This document shows positions 4,736 to 62,008 of a DNA stretch of 64,000 bases, in pieces. The stretch is from NCBI GenBank assembly GCA_964625335.1, contig CAZVBE010000002.1:36689-100688 (forward strand), written 5' to 3'. This DNA is from an uncultured Clostridium sp. (GTDB lineage: Bacteria > Bacillota > Clostridia > Ch29). Under the pieces are notes generated by a model. That model was not told the DNA's origin. It ran no database searches and saw nothing but the letters and a program-made list of their open reading frames with translations. Position 1 is the stretch's first letter, and each line of letters starts with the position of its first letter. The position numbers were made by a program, and so were the translations under genes.

Positions 4736-4985
4736 AAAATTAATAGTTCAGGAAAGACAGTGAAGGGAAGTAGTAATTCGATTCCGTTTCCACAGAAAGA
4801 AAGCCCGCGGCTGAAAGGCTTTTGGAACAGGGCGAATGAAGCAGTCCCGGAGTTGCAGTATCGAAATGAGAGTAGATGCTGCCGGATGTATCCGTTATAT
4901 ATTACAAGAGGCCGTTTTTAGGCAATTAGGGTGGTACCGCGGATTAGTCCCCGTCCCTGACACACGTCAGAGACGGGGTTTTTAT
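4736..4985 (+). promoter_or_regulatory. T-box leader RNA (tRNA-Ala responsive) with terminator
   Basis: Conserved T-box sequence AATTAGGGTGGTACCGCGG at 4924-4942. It is followed by the terminator CCCCGTCCCTGACACACGTCAGAGACGGGG TTTTT (4948-4985). The leader lies upstream of alaS, as in other Firmicutes. Confidence 0.8.
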
Positions 4986-13715: not shown

Positions 13716-14153
13716 GTGGCTGGTTCCAACGCTATTATGGATTTGTTTAAAGACAAGGGATATAAGTATACTCTGCAAAGGAAAATAGTGGTTGATATGC
13801 TGTTAAAGCACCGGGGCAGGCATATGAGCACTGAGGATATTTATAATCTGGCTAAAAGGAAATGCCCGGAAATCGGCCTTGCTACAGTTTATAGAACCCT
13901 GCAGCTTTTGGAAGAATTGGGAGCCGTTAATAAGCTTAATTTTGACGATGGCTGCAGCAGGTACGAATTGATGGAGGATAATAAGGACCACCAGCATCAC
14001 CATCTAATATGTATATCCTGCGGTCGGGTACAGGAAGTAGAAGAGGATTTACTTGAAAATCTGGAAAAGAAAATTGAGGAGAAAAATCTCTTTAAAGTTA
14101 TAGATCATAGGGTGAAGTTTTTCGGTTTGTGCAGTAGTTGCGCAGATAAATAG
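13716..14153 (+). CDS. Fur-family metalloregulator (PerR/Fur-like)
   Basis: TLQRKIVVDML.. HTH, then HHHLICISCGRV and CSSC metal sites. The start is uncertain (GTG 13716 after AGGTGG, or ATG 13737). Confidence 0.75.
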   Translation: MAGSNAIMDLFKDKGYKYTLQRKIVVDMLLKHRGRHMSTEDIYNLAKRKCPEIGLATVYRTLQLLEELGAVNKLNFDDGCSRYELMEDNKDHQHHHLICISCGRVQEVEEDLLENLEKKIEEKNLFKVIDHRVKFFGLCSSCADK

Positions 14154-14178
14154 ACACCTGTTCGGGTGTTTTTTATTG
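14154..14178 (+). terminator. intrinsic terminator after fur-like gene
   Basis: ACACCTG-ttc-GGGTGT hairpin then TTTTTT. Confidence 0.6.
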
Positions 14179-14289
14179 GTTTATAAATATCGGTTAAGGG
14201 ACGGAAGCCGTAACGGGTATTAACCGAAAATTGTGTTGGGATAAAAAGAACTATAACAACAAAGGGGTAATAAAAAGGAGAGTGAAGAT

Positions 14290-15963
14290 ATGACAAAAGA
14301 GAGGAATAACGAAAAGGTCAGGATTATTCCCCTTGGAGGGCTGCATGAAATAGGCAAGAATATGACGGTAATTGAACAGGGCAACGACATAATTGTGGTG
14401 GATTGCGGATTAACCTTCCCGGAGGAAGAGATGTTGGGGATAGATATTGTTATACCCGACACTTCATACCTTGTGAAAAATAAAGATAAAATAAGGGGTA
14501 TTGTACTGACCCACGGTCATGAGGACCATATAGGGGCTCTGCCCTATGTGCTGCAGCAGTTTAATGTTCCGATTTACGGTACAAGGCTTACGCTGGGGCT
14601 TGTGAAAAACAAGCTGGTCGAATTCAATATTGCCGAAAACAGCAAGATGATAGTAGTGAAACCTGGGGATACAATAGAGCTGGGACATATAAGCGTGGAA
14701 TTCATACGGACCAGCCACAGTATAGCGGATTCCGTGGCATTGGCAATAACCACCGGTGCCGGGGTTATTGTGCATACAAGCGATTTCAAGGTGGATTTTA
14801 CGCCTATAGACGGGGAAATGATGAACCTTCATAAGTTTGCGGAATTGGGCGAAAAAGGTGTCCTGCTTTTATTGGCGGACAGTACTAATGTAGAAAGGCC
14901 GGGGTATACCATGTCCGAAAGCACGGTGGGACAGACCTTTGACGATATCCTCGCCGGCACCAAAGACAGGATAATTGTGGCGACCTTTGCGTCAAATGTA
15001 CACAGGATACAGCAAATAATTAACTCTACCCACAAGGTTGGCAGAAAGCTGGCGGTATGCGGCAGAAGCATGGTTAACGTTGTGGGGGTTGCCCTCGAGC
15101 TTGGCTACCTGAACATACCGGATGGTCTTATGATAGATATAGATGAAATAGGACGGTATCGGAATCATGAACTGACCATTCTTACCACCGGCAGCCAGGG
15201 CGAGCCGATGTCAGCGCTGACCCGGATGGCCAATGCAGATCACAGAAATGTAGAAATACTGCCCGGGGACATGGTAATAATTTCTGCCAGCGCAATCCCG
15301 GGGAATGAAAAGCTGATAGGCAGGGTTATAAACAGGCTGTTTGCCAAAGGAGCAAACGTGATATATGAAGATTTGGCTGACATACACGTGTCGGGTCATG
15401 CATGCCAGGAAGAACTTAAGCTTATACATTCCCTTGTCAGGCCGAAGTTTTTTATACCGGTACATGGTGAGTACAGGCACCTGGAACGTCATGCACGGCT
15501 TGCAAAGTCGTTGGGTATGGCCAGCGACCATATTTTACTGGCCGAGATAGGCAATGTGATAGAACTGACGAAAAATTCGGCCAAGATAACCGGAAATGTT
15601 ACGGCTGGAAAGGTGCTTGTGGATGGTCTGGGAGTTGGAGATGTGGGGAATGTCGTGCTTAGGGACAGGAAACACCTGGCACAGGACGGGCTTATGGTGG
15701 TGGTGGTTACCATATCCAAAGAAAAGGGAGGAATAGTTGGCGGCCCGGACATAATATCAAGGGGATTTGTGTATGTCAGAGAATCCGAGGATTTGATGGA
15801 AGAGGCCCGGGTAGTTGTAAAGGATGCCCTGGCCCGTTGTGAACAAAAGCAAATTACTGAATGGGCCACCCTTAAATCGGGTATCAGGGACAGCCTCAGG
15901 ACCTTTTTGTATGAAAAGACAAAGCGCAAGCCTATGATATTGCCTATAATAATGGAGATATAG
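14290..15963 (+). CDS. rnj: ribonuclease J
   Basis: 557 aa with the MBL HxHxDH motif (THGHEDHIGALP), beta-CASP and C-terminal domains. Overall layout fits RNase J1/J2. Confidence 0.9.
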   Translation: MTKERNNEKVRIIPLGGLHEIGKNMTVIEQGNDIIVVDCGLTFPEEEMLGIDIVIPDTSYLVKNKDKIRGIVLTHGHEDHIGALPYVLQQFNVPIYGTRLTLGLVKNKLVEFNIAENSKMIVVKPGDTIELGHISVEFIRTSHSIADSVALAITTGAGVIVHTSDFKVDFTPIDGEMMNLHKFAELGEKGVLLLLADSTNVERPGYTMSESTVGQTFDDILAGTKDRIIVATFASNVHRIQQIINSTHKVGRKLAVCGRSMVNVVGVALELGYLNIPDGLMIDIDEIGRYRNHELTILTTGSQGEPMSALTRMANADHRNVEILPGDMVIISASAIPGNEKLIGRVINRLFAKGANVIYEDLADIHVSGHACQEELKLIHSLVRPKFFIPVHGEYRHLERHARLAKSLGMASDHILLAEIGNVIELTKNSAKITGNVTAGKVLVDGLGVGDVGNVVLRDRKHLAQDGLMVVVVTISKEKGGIVGGPDIISRGFVYVRESEDLMEEARVVVKDALARCEQKQITEWATLKSGIRDSLRTFLYEKTKRKPMILPIIMEI

Positions 15964-19505: not shown

Positions 19506-19531
19506 CACCGACCAAGCGACCAAGGGAGCAC

Positions 19532-19552
19532 GACCAAGGGGACGGTTCTTGT
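19532..19552 (+). repeat. solo REP unit (same family as the RAYT-flanking REPs)
   Basis: CGACCAAGGGGACGGTTCTTG lies directly after the splB stop. It is preceded by a degenerate CGACCAAG tandem (19508-19525). Confidence 0.7.
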
Positions 19553-19596
19553 GGTTGTTATACTTCCACAGCTGTGATACGTTTAGCCGTGGGGGT

Positions 19597-19655
19597 ATAT
19601 TTTATACCTAGAATAGCAAGAAAGAAAAGCGAAAGTGGGATATTTTATAACAGCG
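19597..19655 (+). pseudogene. 5' remnant of a Y1 (RAYT-like) transposase gene
   Basis: 19532-19655 is about 85% identical to 21254-21385 (REP plus the leader and first codons of the transposase at 21329). The ATG is replaced by ATACCTAG, and similarity ends after about 20 codons. Confidence 0.6.
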
Positions 19656-19845
19656 ATTTTGTATGTCTATCAAAACCTGGTAAAGGCCGGCCATGCAAAG
19701 AAGGTATAGGATTGTAAATGAAGAAGCTATAATGAACGTAAAGAAGCTAGATGTCTTGGAGGGGAGCCTTTATTAGATGAAAAGAATGTTAAATAGCAGT
19801 TTACCGCATGGGGATAGATATTCACTGAGATATGATTATTAGAAA

Positions 19846-20327
19846 TTGCTTTCTATATTTGTTCTTTATGAGCTGATTTTTGATTATGATATGGAGCTTT
19901 TATGGCCAAGACTTATGATTTATCTAATTGTCATAGAGTTGATAAACCTAAAGAATTATAAGCATAAGTCAGCGGAGGAACCAGTTGAGAGTATTGAATA
20001 TATTGTGGTGATTACAGGCTATACAGGTATGAAATTGGCAGAGGAGGAGATCCACAGCTTTTAGTGGATGATCGGGTCTTATCTTATATTGTTACAGACT
20101 ATGGAATATACTATTCTTTACATTCCAAAGATGTGGGTTATCCAGGTGAAGGGCTTTATAAAACAGGGCTTGATGGAACCGGAAAAACCTTATTAGACGA
20201 TACACAAAGAATCGAGAGTATAAGTCAGCTAGGGAATTGGCTATTTTTCATGTCATCTGATGACAACATATACCCAAGTCAAAAGAGACTAGAACTATGG
20301 TCACAAGAGATAACAGTTATGAGTTAA
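19846..20327 (+). pseudogene. frameshifted fragment of a DUF5050-like repeat protein in a low-GC patch
   Basis: Two abutting ORFs in different frames. The second carries the DUF5050-like pattern IYYSLHS..GLYKTGLDGTGKTLL. The region is AT-rich with no credible RBS. Confidence 0.3.
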
Positions 20328-20481
20328 TATGGCATTTTAGCCAAAAGAGATTAAATAGTGTATTATCTTCCGGAGATAGGTTTCGTTAAAGATTCCAAAA
20401 AGAAAAATTGAGCTACTGTTTTATAACCCTTCCTTCAAGGTATTATATAACTATACAAATAGATATAGGGGAGGGTTTTTG

Positions 20482-21234
20482 ATGAGCCAAATGAATGAGA
20501 TGGTACAAAGGCAGCTCGGGCACCGTACAATTCGTGAGTTTAAAGATATAAGAATACCAGGGAAGGTTTTCGACACCCTGATGGAGGTCGCAAGGCGAAC
20601 TGCCACCTCAAACGGAATGCAGTCCTACTCAATTATCCGGGTCACCGATCCATTCATAAAGAAGGAAATTGCAGGGGTTTGTAATCAGGAGTATGTAGGT
20701 AGGGCACCGGAGCTTTTGATATTTGTAGTGGATCAATTCAAGAACAACAGGATTGCAAAGGAAAAGGGAGCCGAAACCGAAAACGCGGCAGATATGGACT
20801 GGTTTTTTCAGGGTTTTACCGATGCGTGCCTGGCGGTTCAAAACGTTGTTAATGCGGCAGAGGCCATGGACCTGGGCGTTGTGTTTTTTGGCAGCATTTT
20901 AAACGATTCGGAAAGGATTTGTAAGGTCCTAAAGCTGCCTAAACTGACATTCCCGGTATTAGGATTAGGGATAGGCTACCCCGATCAAGACCCGCAACTA
21001 AAACCCAGGTTTGAAAACAGGATCAGGGTTTTCGAAAACAGCTATAGGATATTCGAAAATTATTTGGAGGAAATTAAAGATTATGATCAGGAAATGACAA
21101 CCTACTACGACTTAAGAAATAAAAACAGAAAGGTAGACAGCTTTAGCGACCAGGTGGTGGCCAAACTAAGCACTTCCATACCCAACAGGCAGGGGATACT
21201 TAAGGTTATTAGGCAGCAGGGTTTTAAGGTATAA
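20482..21234 (+). CDS. oxygen-insensitive NAD(P)H nitroreductase (NfsA-like)
   Basis: 250 aa with the nitroreductase fold signature (RHTIREFKD.. early, GVFFGS near the middle). ATG 20482 follows GGGGAGGG. Confidence 0.75.
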   Translation: MSQMNEMVQRQLGHRTIREFKDIRIPGKVFDTLMEVARRTATSNGMQSYSIIRVTDPFIKKEIAGVCNQEYVGRAPELLIFVVDQFKNNRIAKEKGAETENAADMDWFFQGFTDACLAVQNVVNAAEAMDLGVVFFGSILNDSERICKVLKLPKLTFPVLGLGIGYPDQDPQLKPRFENRIRVFENSYRIFENYLEEIKDYDQEMTTYYDLRNKNRKVDSFSDQVVAKLSTSIPNRQGILKVIRQQGFKV

Positions 21235-21276
21235 CCAAGGGGACGGTTCTTGTATAACCAAGGGGACGGTTCTTGT
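21230..21276 (+). repeat. REP doublet (direct tandem 2x ATAACCAAGGGGACGGTTCTTGT), left flank of transposase
   Basis: Two 23/24-bp tandem copies. The first overlaps the nitroreductase stop codon. Confidence 0.85.
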
Positions 21277-21328
21277 GGTTGATATACTATCGCGGCTGTG
21301 ATACGATTAGCTGCAGGGGTGGTATTTT

Positions 21329-22087
21329 ATGCCAAGAGGAGCAAGAAAGAAAAGCGAAAGCGGGATATATCATATTTTGTTGCGAGGGCAAAACAGGCAG
21401 ATAATTTTCGAAGATGATGAGGATAAAGAAAGGTTTATACAAACATTAAAAGACTGTAAAAACAAAAGCGGATGGAAAATATACGGATATTGCCTAATGG
21501 GAAACCATATTCATTTGTTGCTGCACGAATTTGACGAAGAAACAGGAATAATAATGCGGCGGATTGGCGCGAGTTATGTATACTGGTATAACTGGAAGTA
21601 TAAACGCTGTGGACACTTGTTTCAGGACCGTTATAAAAGTGAAGCGGTTGAAACAGAAAAGTATTTTTTAACAGTCCTTCGATACATACATCAAAACCCG
21701 GTAAAGGCTGGTCACGCAAAGAAGGCCCTGGATTATAAATGGAGCAGCTATAATGAATATATGAATAATAACGGGATAACGGATACCGGCTTTGCACTGG
21801 GCATTTTCAATGAGGACAGGGAAAAGGCGATTCAGAATTTCATAGATTTTCATAATGAACAAAAAGAAGCTAATTGCCTTGAAATGGAAGAGCGCTTCAG
21901 GCTGACAGATGAAGAAGCAATGGCCATCATAAAGGAGGAGTATTGCGTATCCAGTAGTTTGCAGCTAAAGGATTTTGAAAAAAAGAAAAGAGACATATGT
22001 ATAAAAGAGCTAAAAGATAAAGGTCTGTCGACAAGGCAAATAGAGCGGCTGACGGGGATAAGCAGATACATTATTCTGAAAATGTAA
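21329..22087 (+). CDS. Y1/HUH transposase, REP-associated tyrosine transposase-like (IS200/IS605 TnpA superfamily) with C-terminal HTH
   Basis: HuH motif GNHIHLLLHE and a downstream catalytic-Tyr region (DRYKSEAVE). The C-terminal LSTRQIERLTGISRYIILKM looks like an HTH. The gene is flanked by inverted REPs. Confidence 0.75.
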   Translation: MPRGARKKSESGIYHILLRGQNRQIIFEDDEDKERFIQTLKDCKNKSGWKIYGYCLMGNHIHLLLHEFDEETGIIMRRIGASYVYWYNWKYKRCGHLFQDRYKSEAVETEKYFLTVLRYIHQNPVKAGHAKKALDYKWSSYNEYMNNNGITDTGFALGIFNEDREKAIQNFIDFHNEQKEANCLEMEERFRLTDEEAMAIIKEEYCVSSSLQLKDFEKKKRDICIKELKDKGLSTRQIERLTGISRYIILKM

Positions 22088-22139
22088 CCGTAAGAACCGT
22101 CCCCTTGGTTATCAACCGTAAGAACCGTCCCCTTGGTTA
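22088..22139 (+). repeat. REP doublet, right flank (inverted orientation)
   Basis: 2x CCGTAAGAACCGTCCCCTTGGTTA, the reverse complement of the left-flank unit, starting the base after the transposase stop. Confidence 0.85.
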
Positions 22140-25032: not shown

Positions 25033-25116
25033 GCATGAAAAAGGCAAACCTGACGAAAGTCAGGGACGCAAAGCTGCGAGTCTACGGTAATCTTACTACG
25101 ACAGTCGGGCTGCCAT
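25033..25116 (+). promoter_or_regulatory. c-di-GMP-I (GEMM) riboswitch aptamer
   Basis: GGCAAACC-TGAC-GAAA-GTCA-GGGACGCAAAGC..CGGGCTGCC matches the GEMM-I core. That core is GGCAAACC, a P2 stem with GAAA tetraloop, GGGACGCAAAGC, and a 3' G-rich closing strand. Compare the V. cholerae Vc2 segment GGGCAAACCAUUCGAAAGAGUGGGACGCAAAGCC. Confidence 0.75.
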
Positions 25117-25142
25117 AAGACATAATACATTAGTTTATGGCT

Positions 25143-25171: not shown

Positions 25172-25207
25172 ATGTTATTTCCGGACTATATGGAAGGGGA
25201 AAAAATC

Positions 25208-26323
25208 TTGCTACAGTTGGCTAGAACTCTTGTTTTTATGGAAATGCTGTTTATAAATTTGATAACCACGCACCGCTGTTCGCGGACAAGATATTCACAA
25301 AAGAGTATTACAGCAGGATTAATTTTTTATACGGCTTTGGTGATGTTGACTTCTTTTTTAATCAAGCGTAATCTTAGACTGGAGTTTCTTAACGGCAGTA
25401 TAATCATCTTACTGGGATTTACTTATTTTTTTCCATTAAAGTACTTGTATGATGAATCTTCAGGTAAAATTTTGGCTATCATGTTTTTTTCCTGGATTCA
25501 CACAATGGCTGTGACCTCTATATCTATACAGATTTCTATGCTGTTTGAATTGGACAATTATTTTTATCTGGCTCTTATATTACAAACCATAATCTATTTA
25601 GTCAGCACCCGGGCTGTAATACGTTTTGTAAAGAATAAGTTTATACCTATTTTGAAGAACATTCCGAAGGAAATGAACAAACACCTTATCGTACTAAGCC
25701 TGATGGAATTCACGTCTGTGACGATAGTCTATCTATTCTTTAACGAAAACGCAAATCCTTACTGGACAATAATAATAGTGGCACTGATAGCGTCAATAGC
25801 AGCGATAAACTACCATTTAATCTATGTAGTAGTTAAAAACTATAAAAGTATAAGCTTTTTAAAACTGCTTGCTTATTCGGATACTCTAACCGGTATCAAA
25901 AACAGACTGGCACTTTTTCTTGATTGCGATAAACTGATTTCCCAAAATAAGCCCTTCACTTATATATATATGGACCTGGATGATTTCAAAAAAGTAAATG
26001 ATACATACGGTCACTCTGTCGGGGATGATTATCTGAAGCAGTTTACCAAAGCAGCAATAGAAACGATAGGGGATAAAGGAAGCATCTACAGAATGTCAGG
26101 CGATGAATTTGTCTGTATATATAACGAAGACAAAATAGATTTATTACTGGCAACATTTGATGAAAAAGTTATGAACCTGTTTGAAATGAGCGTACCGTTC
26201 TTAGGAGTTAGTATTGGCTATGCAAAGTTTCCTGAAGATGCCGATTCGTTGGATAAACTTGTGAATAAAGCAGATAAAATCATGTATAAAGTCAAAAAAA
26301 CCAATAAACTCAAACCGATTTAG
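25208..26323 (+). CDS. membrane-anchored GGDEF-domain protein with SGDEF variant motif
   Basis: About 6 N-terminal TM helices, then a GGDEF domain whose signature reads RMSGDEFV (SGDEF). The start is uncertain: ATG 25172 has no RBS, TTG 25208 follows GGAAGGGG. Confidence 0.7.
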   Translation: MLQLARTLVFMEMLFINLITTHRCSRTRYSQKSITAGLIFYTALVMLTSFLIKRNLRLEFLNGSIIILLGFTYFFPLKYLYDESSGKILAIMFFSWIHTMAVTSISIQISMLFELDNYFYLALILQTIIYLVSTRAVIRFVKNKFIPILKNIPKEMNKHLIVLSLMEFTSVTIVYLFFNENANPYWTIIIVALIASIAAINYHLIYVVVKNYKSISFLKLLAYSDTLTGIKNRLALFLDCDKLISQNKPFTYIYMDLDDFKKVNDTYGHSVGDDYLKQFTKAAIETIGDKGSIYRMSGDEFVCIYNEDKIDLLLATFDEKVMNLFEMSVPFLGVSIGYAKFPEDADSLDKLVNKADKIMYKVKKTNKLKPI

Positions 26324-61916: not shown

Positions 61917-62008
61917 ACCGGGAACACCCCGGCAATGCGACAGAGGGACGGTTTTAGATTGCCGCGCTGCTGTAACAGCGATGAGTGGTCAGAAGAGAAG
62001 ACGTCCTG

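Follow-up and report, generated by a model that had tools for sequence, protein, structure and literature searches.

The stretch of DNA analyzed here (the window: 64 kb of contig CAZVBE010000002.1 from an uncultured Clostridium sp.; all coordinates are positions within it) contains an intact gene for an HUH/Y1 transposase that is bounded on each side by short inverted repeats. Upstream of it, with a nitroreductase gene in between and directly after a splB gene, lie the remains of a second copy of the same arrangement. The locus probably represents a small RAYT-like element, of the kind described as TIRYT or TnpA-Y1 subclass 2.1, in two copies, one intact and the other dead. The intact element is made up of the following features.

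21233 to 21253 (core), forward strand: left outer repeat unit, truncated and without the 3' GGTT arm, recognized by reading of the sequence and by repeat search

21256 to 21280, forward strand: left inner repeat unit, a complete 25-mer AACCAAG-GGGACGGTTCT-TGTGGTT (5' arm, conserved loop, 3' arm)

21279 to 21307, forward strand: promoter-like site TTGATA-N17-TACGAT, in which TG precedes the second hexamer and the first hexamer overlaps the 3' repeat arm

21292 to 21322, forward strand: putative leader stem GCGGCT (21292 to 21297) / AGCTGC (21309 to 21314) around the -10 hexamer, with the ribosome-binding site GGGGTGG (21316 to 21322) 3' of the stem

21329 to 22087, forward strand: intact HUH/Y1 transposase gene, 252 amino acids (H60-I-H62, Y119-IHQ-NP, and a C-terminal helical domain resembling a helix-turn-helix (HTH) at about residues 194 to 252)

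22086 to 22110, reverse strand: right inner repeat unit, complete and inverted, sharing bases with the transposase stop codon

22114 to 22138, reverse strand: right outer repeat unit, complete and inverted, which with its flanks pairs as a 30-nt inverted repeat to 21255 to 21284

An initial annotation of this DNA had described two repeat units per side in inverted orientation, and that arrangement is confirmed. On the left, two direct units recur with a period of 23, on the right two complete inverted units with a period of 28, and the 30-nt inverted repeat formed by 21255 to 21284 and 22110 to 22139 is 93% complementary. The 21-mer AACCAAGGGGACGGTTCTTGT, with up to three mismatches allowed, has five sites in the 64 kb, all at this locus and including the decayed copy, and none in 100 shuffles, which is far beyond chance. 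The same annotation placed the repeats base-adjacent to the open reading frame (ORF); this is true of the right side only, where the stop codon overlaps the first unit, and not of the left, where a 48-nt leader (21281 to 21328) intervenes between the repeats and the transposase ATG. It was correct that the left repeat overlaps the nitroreductase stop codon: the TAA at 21232 to 21234 lies within the 'ATAACC' of the left outer unit and overlaps the first two bases of that unit. Readings of the repeats as CRISPR-like or as a tandem array were set aside, there being only two units per side, inverted around the transposase gene. The whole-window Rfam scan gave no match at the element locus, and no tRNA genes were found as a possible insertion target.

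What kind of repeat brackets the gene? The exact 19-mer AACCAAGGGGACGGTTCTT was searched in a species-representative genome collection and is present in 105 stretches, each of at most 8 kb, from 65 genomes. Most of the hosts are Clostridia (Syntrophomonas, Desulfotomaculaceae, Hungateiclostridiaceae, Petroclostridium, and Alkaliphilus) or Bacilli (Neobacillus, Salipaludibacillus, Fredinandcohnia, and Lederbergia). The loop GGGACGGTTCT used alone as an anchor identifies 331 units in these stretches, and when they are compared the repeat has the form N7-GGGACGGTTCT-N7', in which the 11-nt loop is nearly invariant across Bacillota and the stem covaries. The 3' GGTT is 72 to 92% conserved even though it lies outside the searched 19-mer, giving a 25-nt unit. 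Stems differ by genome (AACCAAG/..TGGTT, GATGCATG/CATGCATC, GATCCA/TGGATC, AGGCAAG/CTTGCCT), and for 130 distinct loop-anchored units in the register N10-loop11-N10' the covariation score is 0.323, compared with 0.199 ± 0.013 in shuffles, of which 0 of 500 reach 0.323. Pairing cells account for 63% in this register and for 30 to 47% in slid registers. A relative in Acetoanaerobium noterae, found by protein search and only 36% identical in protein sequence, has perfect 25-nt ends (AATCATTAGGGACGGTTCTTTTTGA) with the same loop and a different stem. Base composition around 155 units reveals neither a GTAG nor any conserved base beyond the 25-mer. That the flanking units belong to a dispersed repeat family, as the REP reading of the initial annotation implies, holds in other genomes, where the stem covaries. 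These alignments define the repeat unit as a hairpin in which the stem is free and the loop conserved, the pattern expected for recognition of folded single-stranded DNA. The exact 19-mer is also present in metagenome-assembled genomes binned to other phyla (L042, L095, assigned to Thermotogaceae, and L091, assigned to Kiritimatiellia), which could be due to horizontal transfer or to binning contamination.

The transposase had been proposed to be RAYT-like rather than an ordinary IS200 TnpA, and the profile, structural and motif evidence all point the same way. Its match to Pfam Y1_Tnp (PF01797) has 52.5 bits (E 6.5e-14), where the cut-off is 23, and the protein scores 78.2 bits with the NCBIfam REP_Tyr_transpos model (NF047646) compared with 16.2 bits for the IS200 model, whose cut-off is 55. 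H60-I61-H62 make up the HUH motif, and Y119, within YIHQNP, is the catalytic tyrosine, both being invariant or nearly so in 56 homologues; Y119, N123 and P124 are found in at least 90% of that alignment, and W138-S139-S140 is likewise invariant or nearly so. The sequence Y119-I-H-Q-N123-P124 conforms to Y---NP, the signature of class-2 TnpA-Y1 proteins (Quentin et al. 2018, PMC6006769). An AlphaFold2 model built on the 56 homologues (predicted local distance difference test score 85.9) has as its top structural match in the Protein Data Bank (PDB) 4er8_A, the E. coli TnpA_REP bound to a REP hairpin (E 1e-6, TM-score 0.72 on the target), with the ISDra2, IS608, and IS200 transposases ranking below it in the fold search; in a sequence search of the PDB, E. 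coli TnpA_REP is the sole match, although a weak one (E 0.026). We consider from these comparisons that the protein is RAYT-like and not IS200-like. The C-terminal 60 or so residues are helical in the model, and the HTH that had been proposed there is plausible: HTH_23 matches 31 of the 56 homologues (best E 4.9e-4) and HTH_7 matches 22, the match in the window protein itself being only faint. A profile search of PDB sequences with the C-terminal domain returned only weak or spurious matches, and a specific relationship to DnaA domain IV was not supported by profile or fold searches. Homologous proteins number 7,811 at E <= 1e-5 among 8,000 candidates scored; the few that carry source names are from Clostridia or unclassified Bacillota and are labelled 'transposase' or 'RayT' by their sources. 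Mobile replicons yielded almost no close homologues: 31 of 72,556 plasmid records matched, each at less than 43% identity, and one phage record. The plasmid and phage searches therefore gave no close relatives and no vehicle for horizontal spread.

The second copy lies directly after splB, from 19511 to 19770, and is older and internally deleted.

19511 to 19531, forward strand: degenerate partial copies of the outer (5') repeat arm (GACCAAGC, GACCAAGGGAGCAC), directly 3' of the splB stop codon, from reading of the sequence

19532 to 19556, forward strand: repeat unit of the decayed copy (GACCAAGGGGACGGTTCTTGTGGTT), with one mismatch to the core

19557 to 19770, forward strand: decayed leader and internally deleted transposase pseudogene, matching codons 1 to 15, 112 to 143 and about 175 to 187

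It had been described as a second left end with a destroyed start codon. A left end is indeed present and the start codon is lost (ATG to ATA, 19604 to 19606), but more than a left end survives. Three pieces are collinear with the intact element: 19533 to 19649 corresponds to 21257 to 21374 (83 to 86% identity), 19641 to 19736 to 21662 to 21757 (77%), and 19729 to 19765 to 21852 to 21888 (78%). In-frame stops are present and no right end of this copy survives. The upstream copy is an old, internally deleted pseudogene, and because the two copies are only 77 to 86% identical they are likely to be old and independent. A similar layout is found in Pelotomaculum sp. UBA10960 (L038), in which a second left end, its start codon likewise ATA, comes straight after an intact copy, head-to-tail as in the window.

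One or two further copies of the outer hairpin arm (about 8 to 12 nt, e.g., AACCAAGG) often lie immediately beyond the unit, at either end of elements or of two-hairpin doublets. This was seen at L089, L010, L018, L036, L065, L083 and other loci, as well as at 19511 to 19531 of the window, and in Petroclostridium the outer-arm copies are translated as RNQG repeats that end an upstream ORF. Of 194 units, 49 have ACCAAGG, with one mismatch at most, in the 22 nt beyond the unit; in a control region the figure is 11 of 194. Mis-joining after cleavage and hairpin slippage are possible sources of this repetition.

Evidence that the element duplicates as a unit comes from relatives. The complete genome of Petroclostridium sp. 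X23 contains two copies 4.4 kb apart that are 96.9% identical over 862 bp, with homology bounded by the outer edges of the hairpins; elsewhere in the same genome there is a third copy. Given this hairpin-to-hairpin identity, the whole hairpin-gene-hairpin unit duplicates in X23, and the sequences thus suggest that it moves as one. Internally deleted genes that retain both ends are found in four stretches (L025, L098, L068, and L064), and a transposase homologue is present in only 22 of the 105 stretches with the 19-mer. Among inverted doublets with units within 120 nt of each other, 34 have the end-to-end (left-then-right) orientation of the element and 3 have the opposite one. A variant in one arm often has its counterpart in the other, as in L018 (GGGGACAGTTC / GAACTGTCCCC), and a representative doublet folds at -37.9 kcal/mol. 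Present-day genomes contain the complete family series of autonomous unit, internally deleted unit, doublet, and solitary hairpin.

Position is a further family trait. The stop codons of long ORFs that read into the unit cluster just outside its 5' arm: in 28 of 170 units a stop codon lies no more than 20 nt away, and 7 of the 170 share bases with a stop codon, exactly as the nitroreductase stop does in the window. In the related organism L117 the stop codon is placed likewise, and both window copies are directly 3' of the stop of a co-directional gene, splB and the nitroreductase gene, respectively. Placement right after a gene's stop codon is the usual one for the family.

In the organism of the window there are signs of other copies. 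In four independent metagenome assemblies the sequence breaks off inside the element or at it, although the flanking DNA assembles into contigs of 67 to 112 kb; the sequence of this organism is also present in ENA ERZ27252280, JGI 3300033162 and SRR10872668. One metagenome scan with a left-end pattern specific to the subfamily had its single match in a related organism and added no copies from this one. When the window is compared with the sister strain L106 over 10.8 kb, all four differences fall within the element (21312, 21314, 21339, and 22042), and the leader changes at 21312 and 21314 are the bases of the decayed upstream copy. This pattern suggests gene conversion, or assembly mixing, between copies.

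The transposase gene would be transcribed from its own promoter. The columns GGTTG and TG-N-TA-NN-AT are conserved in 14 left ends from different genomes, and the distance from hairpin to ATG is constant in relatives, at 72 to 74 nt. With the -35 hexamer over the left hairpin, autoregulation would be possible. An anti-Shine-Dalgarno stretch in the leader stem may pair with the ribosome-binding site; one subfamily has a corresponding pairing in its leader (CCTCTG/CAGAGG), and the sister-strain changes at 21312 and 21314 retain six leader-stem pairs. If transcription starts between the arms, the stem would form solely in transcripts reading through from the upstream gene and activation from outside would be blocked. 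Such fold-back protection is a known property of other insertion sequences, one case being the occlusion of the ribosome-binding site in IS200.

How does this element compare with known systems? The closest resemblance is to the TIRtron/TIRYT genes (Di Nocera et al. 2013, PMC3733652), RAYT-like genes flanked by inverted repeats that share GGGG[AT][CG]A[CG] and that sometimes form moderately abundant families of dimers and clusters, and to the TnpA-Y1 proteins of subclass 2.1, whose C-terminal extension has HTH similarity (Bac_DnaA_C, HTH_23, or HTH_28) (PMC6006769). TIRYT is equated with subclass 2.1, and the element probably falls in subgroup 2.1.2, a placement made by features and not by the authors' profiles or tree. 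Shared features are a RAYT-like Y1 protein that exceeds IS200 TnpA in length, carries the Y---NP motif, extends past its catalytic tyrosine in a serine-containing segment and ends in an HTH_23-type domain, as well as a gene bracketed by inverted repeats, repeats that occur as dimers or clusters, and a patchy taxonomy. The window repeat GGGGACGG agrees with GGGG[AT][CG]A[CG] at seven of eight positions, with G instead of A at position 7. The published examples name no Bacillota. The repeat described here is a covarying hairpin, a structure that the survey of subclass 2.1 did not report, with an 11-nt loop that is nearly invariant between Bacilli and Clostridia.

E. coli TnpA_REP and its REPtron/BIME system (Ton-Hoang 2012; Messing 2012, PDB 4er8) provide the best structural match and share a gene flanked by inverted short palindromic units that are dispersed in intergenic DNA just 3' of genes. 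However, there is no GTAG head here, it is the loop and not the 5' foot that is conserved, the sequence similarity is marginal, there is an extra C-terminal domain, and a relative has several copies of the gene, which move together with their ends. The description of the locus in the initial annotation as a classic, BIME-like REP-RAYT arrangement does not fit, as there is no GTAG-type REP and the multi-copy gene of relatives moves with its ends. The REPIN-RAYT systems of Pseudomonas (Bertels and Rainey 2011, PMC3116915) are alike in having inverted doublets that form long hairpins with arms changing together, solitary units as well, and a Y1 gene flanked by such units. RAYTs of Groups 2 and 3 are as a rule inherited vertically and present in one copy, and Group 1 is more like insertion sequences and is also found in Clostridia (PMC5581495). 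In contrast to the single-copy genes of REPtrons and of Groups 2 and 3, there is a decayed second copy in the window and there are at least three copies in Petroclostridium sp. X23; duplicated full units and a deletion series resemble Group 1. With the IS200/IS605 family (IS200, IS608, and ISDra2) the element has in common the HUH/Y1 fold, hairpin ends, and a leader stem able to occlude the ribosome-binding site. Unlike that family, in which the ends are hairpins on one strand, it has inverted repeats, its protein is about 100 amino acids longer, and the IS200 model gives it a low score; no tnpB-like ORF is present in the window's ORF list. The element is neither a classic REP-RAYT nor an IS200/IS605 member. 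Whether the Bacillota branch of TIRYT/subclass 2.1 runs a full REP/REPIN-type system is in our view an evenly balanced question, with the nearly invariant loop from Bacilli to Clostridia, retained down to 36% protein identity, the covarying stem, and the series from autonomous unit to solitary hairpin as the evidence for it.

The layout suggests how such an element might work. A single-strand-DNA transposase gene of the HUH/Y1 type is bounded by inverted N7-loop-N7' hairpins, and the enzyme would recognize the hairpin in single-stranded DNA, such as that exposed at a replication fork. The stem would matter only through its pairing, with sequence specificity coming from the invariant 11-nt loop. 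H60 and H62 would hold a metal ion and Y119 would form a 5'-phosphotyrosine link. Loss of the interior would give rise to two-hairpin doublets and solitary hairpins, which we infer to be mobilized in trans.

Several observations weigh against interpreting the locus as a mobile element of this kind. The window's own units are weak hairpins (-1.3 to -2.4 kcal/mol), no better than shuffles, whereas the units of relatives fold at -8.6 to -10.4 kcal/mol; the hairpin is claimed because of covariation across genomes and not because of the stability of the window copy. The curated NCBIfam cut-off for RAYTs, 80 bits, is missed by 1.8 bits, and a fold search with a separate model of the C-terminal domain gave nothing below E = 1, with small HTH domains near the top. 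The leader stem is weakly supported across genomes, where the consensus fold gives five weakly supported pairs. Neither an empty site nor a target duplication nor a presence/absence polymorphism came to light for the element, and close strains share its arrangement. A survey of subclass 2.1 reported no REP-like secondary structures beside these genes (PMC6006769). In the 64-kb window there is no further repeat beyond the locus, save one doubtful site, and since the repeat is confined to the locus within the window, its dispersal is demonstrated in other genomes and not in this organism. Transposition by a subclass 2.1 enzyme has, to our knowledge, no experimental precedent. The doubtful site, for which 0.61 one-mismatch matches to the 11-mer are expected by chance in the window, is the following.

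61931 to 61963, forward strand: possible degenerate solitary unit (GGCAAT..GGGACGGTTTT..ATTGCC), intergenic, 15 nt 3' of a gene's stop codon, with a one-mismatch match to the 11-mer; a candidate only

The strongest of the competing explanations is that the gene is a domesticated RAYT, an immobile and vertically inherited host gene that maintains and disperses hairpins and doublets, as in the REPIN-RAYT relationship, with the flanking units as merely local members of the population. It would fit the 83 of 105 hairpin stretches that lack the gene, the REPIN-like behavior of the doublets, a fold that is closest to TnpA_REP, and the near absence of close homologues from plasmids and phages. It is nevertheless unlikely: against it stand the X23 copies, whose near identity runs exactly from hairpin to hairpin and which are accompanied by a third, and the decayed second copy 1.7 kb away in the window. 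The internally deleted copies in several genomes look like the remains of decaying insertion sequences, and conservation of the unit extends to the promoter and the hairpin-to-ATG distance.

A host regulatory or RNA role, in which the hairpins would be 3'-end stabilizers or terminators of mRNA and the protein a hairpin-binding regulator, is very unlikely. In its favor, the units lie directly 3' of genes, the doublets form very stable hairpins, and a C-terminal HTH is present. Against a purely regulatory role, the catalytic HUH motif and tyrosine are invariant or nearly so in the 56 homologues, no T-run terminators were found at the units and Rfam gave no match, and duplication by whole units together with the deletion series indicates DNA mobility. 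The hairpins of a mobile element may of course have a regulatory side-effect.

There remains the nitroreductase gene, which the initial annotation suggested had been captured between two left ends or caught in a rearranged duplication. The protein is full-length relative to the NfsA model (residues 5 to 250 aligned to 1 to 238 of 240), and the interval between the two copies holds two pseudogene remnants, the dead transposase and a DUF5050 gene. The DUF5050 pseudogene (about 19950 to 20327, forward strand) is frameshifted and 5'-truncated; its ORF at 20064 to 20327 corresponds to profile positions 215 to 280 of 283, just under the Pfam cut-off. Comparison of the splB-nitroreductase junction in relatives was carried out and proved uninformative, since in splB relatives at 83 to 86% identity the downstream genes are unrelated and not syntenic. 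Close strains are identical across the locus. For the exact nitroreductase protein there was no gene on record, and every contig fetched for the flanking genes was a match to this same locus. A compound element of 2.6 kb, running from the decayed left end to the right end with the nitroreductase as cargo, or a rearranged duplication, is very unlikely: two left ends in direct orientation do bracket the gene, a hairpin does overlap its stop codon, and head-to-tail arrangements recur in L038 and L089, but the divergence of the copies indicates no recent duplication, no right end lies upstream, a frameshifted pseudogene lies in the interval, the nitroreductase is full-length, the contigs fetched for the flanking genes all match this locus, and hairpins right after stop codons are the family norm. 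Nothing indicates capture; the nitroreductase gene is most probably a neighbor and not cargo. Two independent, or locally hopped, insertions followed by decay provide a simpler account.

Some other features of the window are recorded here. A c-di-GMP-I-GGC riboswitch aptamer (Rfam RF03167, 75.5 bits) at 25034 to 25118 on the forward strand is directly 5' of a GGDEF-domain gene (about 25172 to 26323, located by correspondence with L106), so that a cyclic di-GMP sensor may control a cyclic di-GMP synthase. A T-box leader (Rfam RF00230, 124.3 bits) is found at 4751 to 4961 on the forward strand. The sister contig L108 (ENA ERZ27252303) matches the window at 100% identity between splB (18510) and 21480, with 0 mismatches per 500-nt bin from 15500 on, and has about 300 mismatches that all fall in about 2 kb (13745 to 15500) over a Fur-family gene and the start of an RNase J gene, a tract that is either the product of recombination or an assembly chimera.

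For the window itself, the annotation is settled as one intact and one dead mobile element with decayed DNA between them, and the nitroreductase gene becomes an ordinary neighbor whose stop codon is supplied by the element's end. The 11-mer GGGACGGTTCT could serve as a simple marker for annotating such repeats in Bacillota genomes. RAYT-type enzymes are widespread, and we know of no direct demonstration of how they disperse repeats. If the Bacillota branch does run a full REP/REPIN-type system, the question of how RAYT-type enzymes spread repeats would become experimentally approachable, as some of the hosts that have copies are cultivable (Petroclostridium, Neobacillus, Salipaludibacillus, and Fredinandcohnia). 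A recognizable hairpin whose loop is invariant, a free stem, and a series that runs from full element to doublet would make this a convenient system for work on binding, cleavage, and excision.

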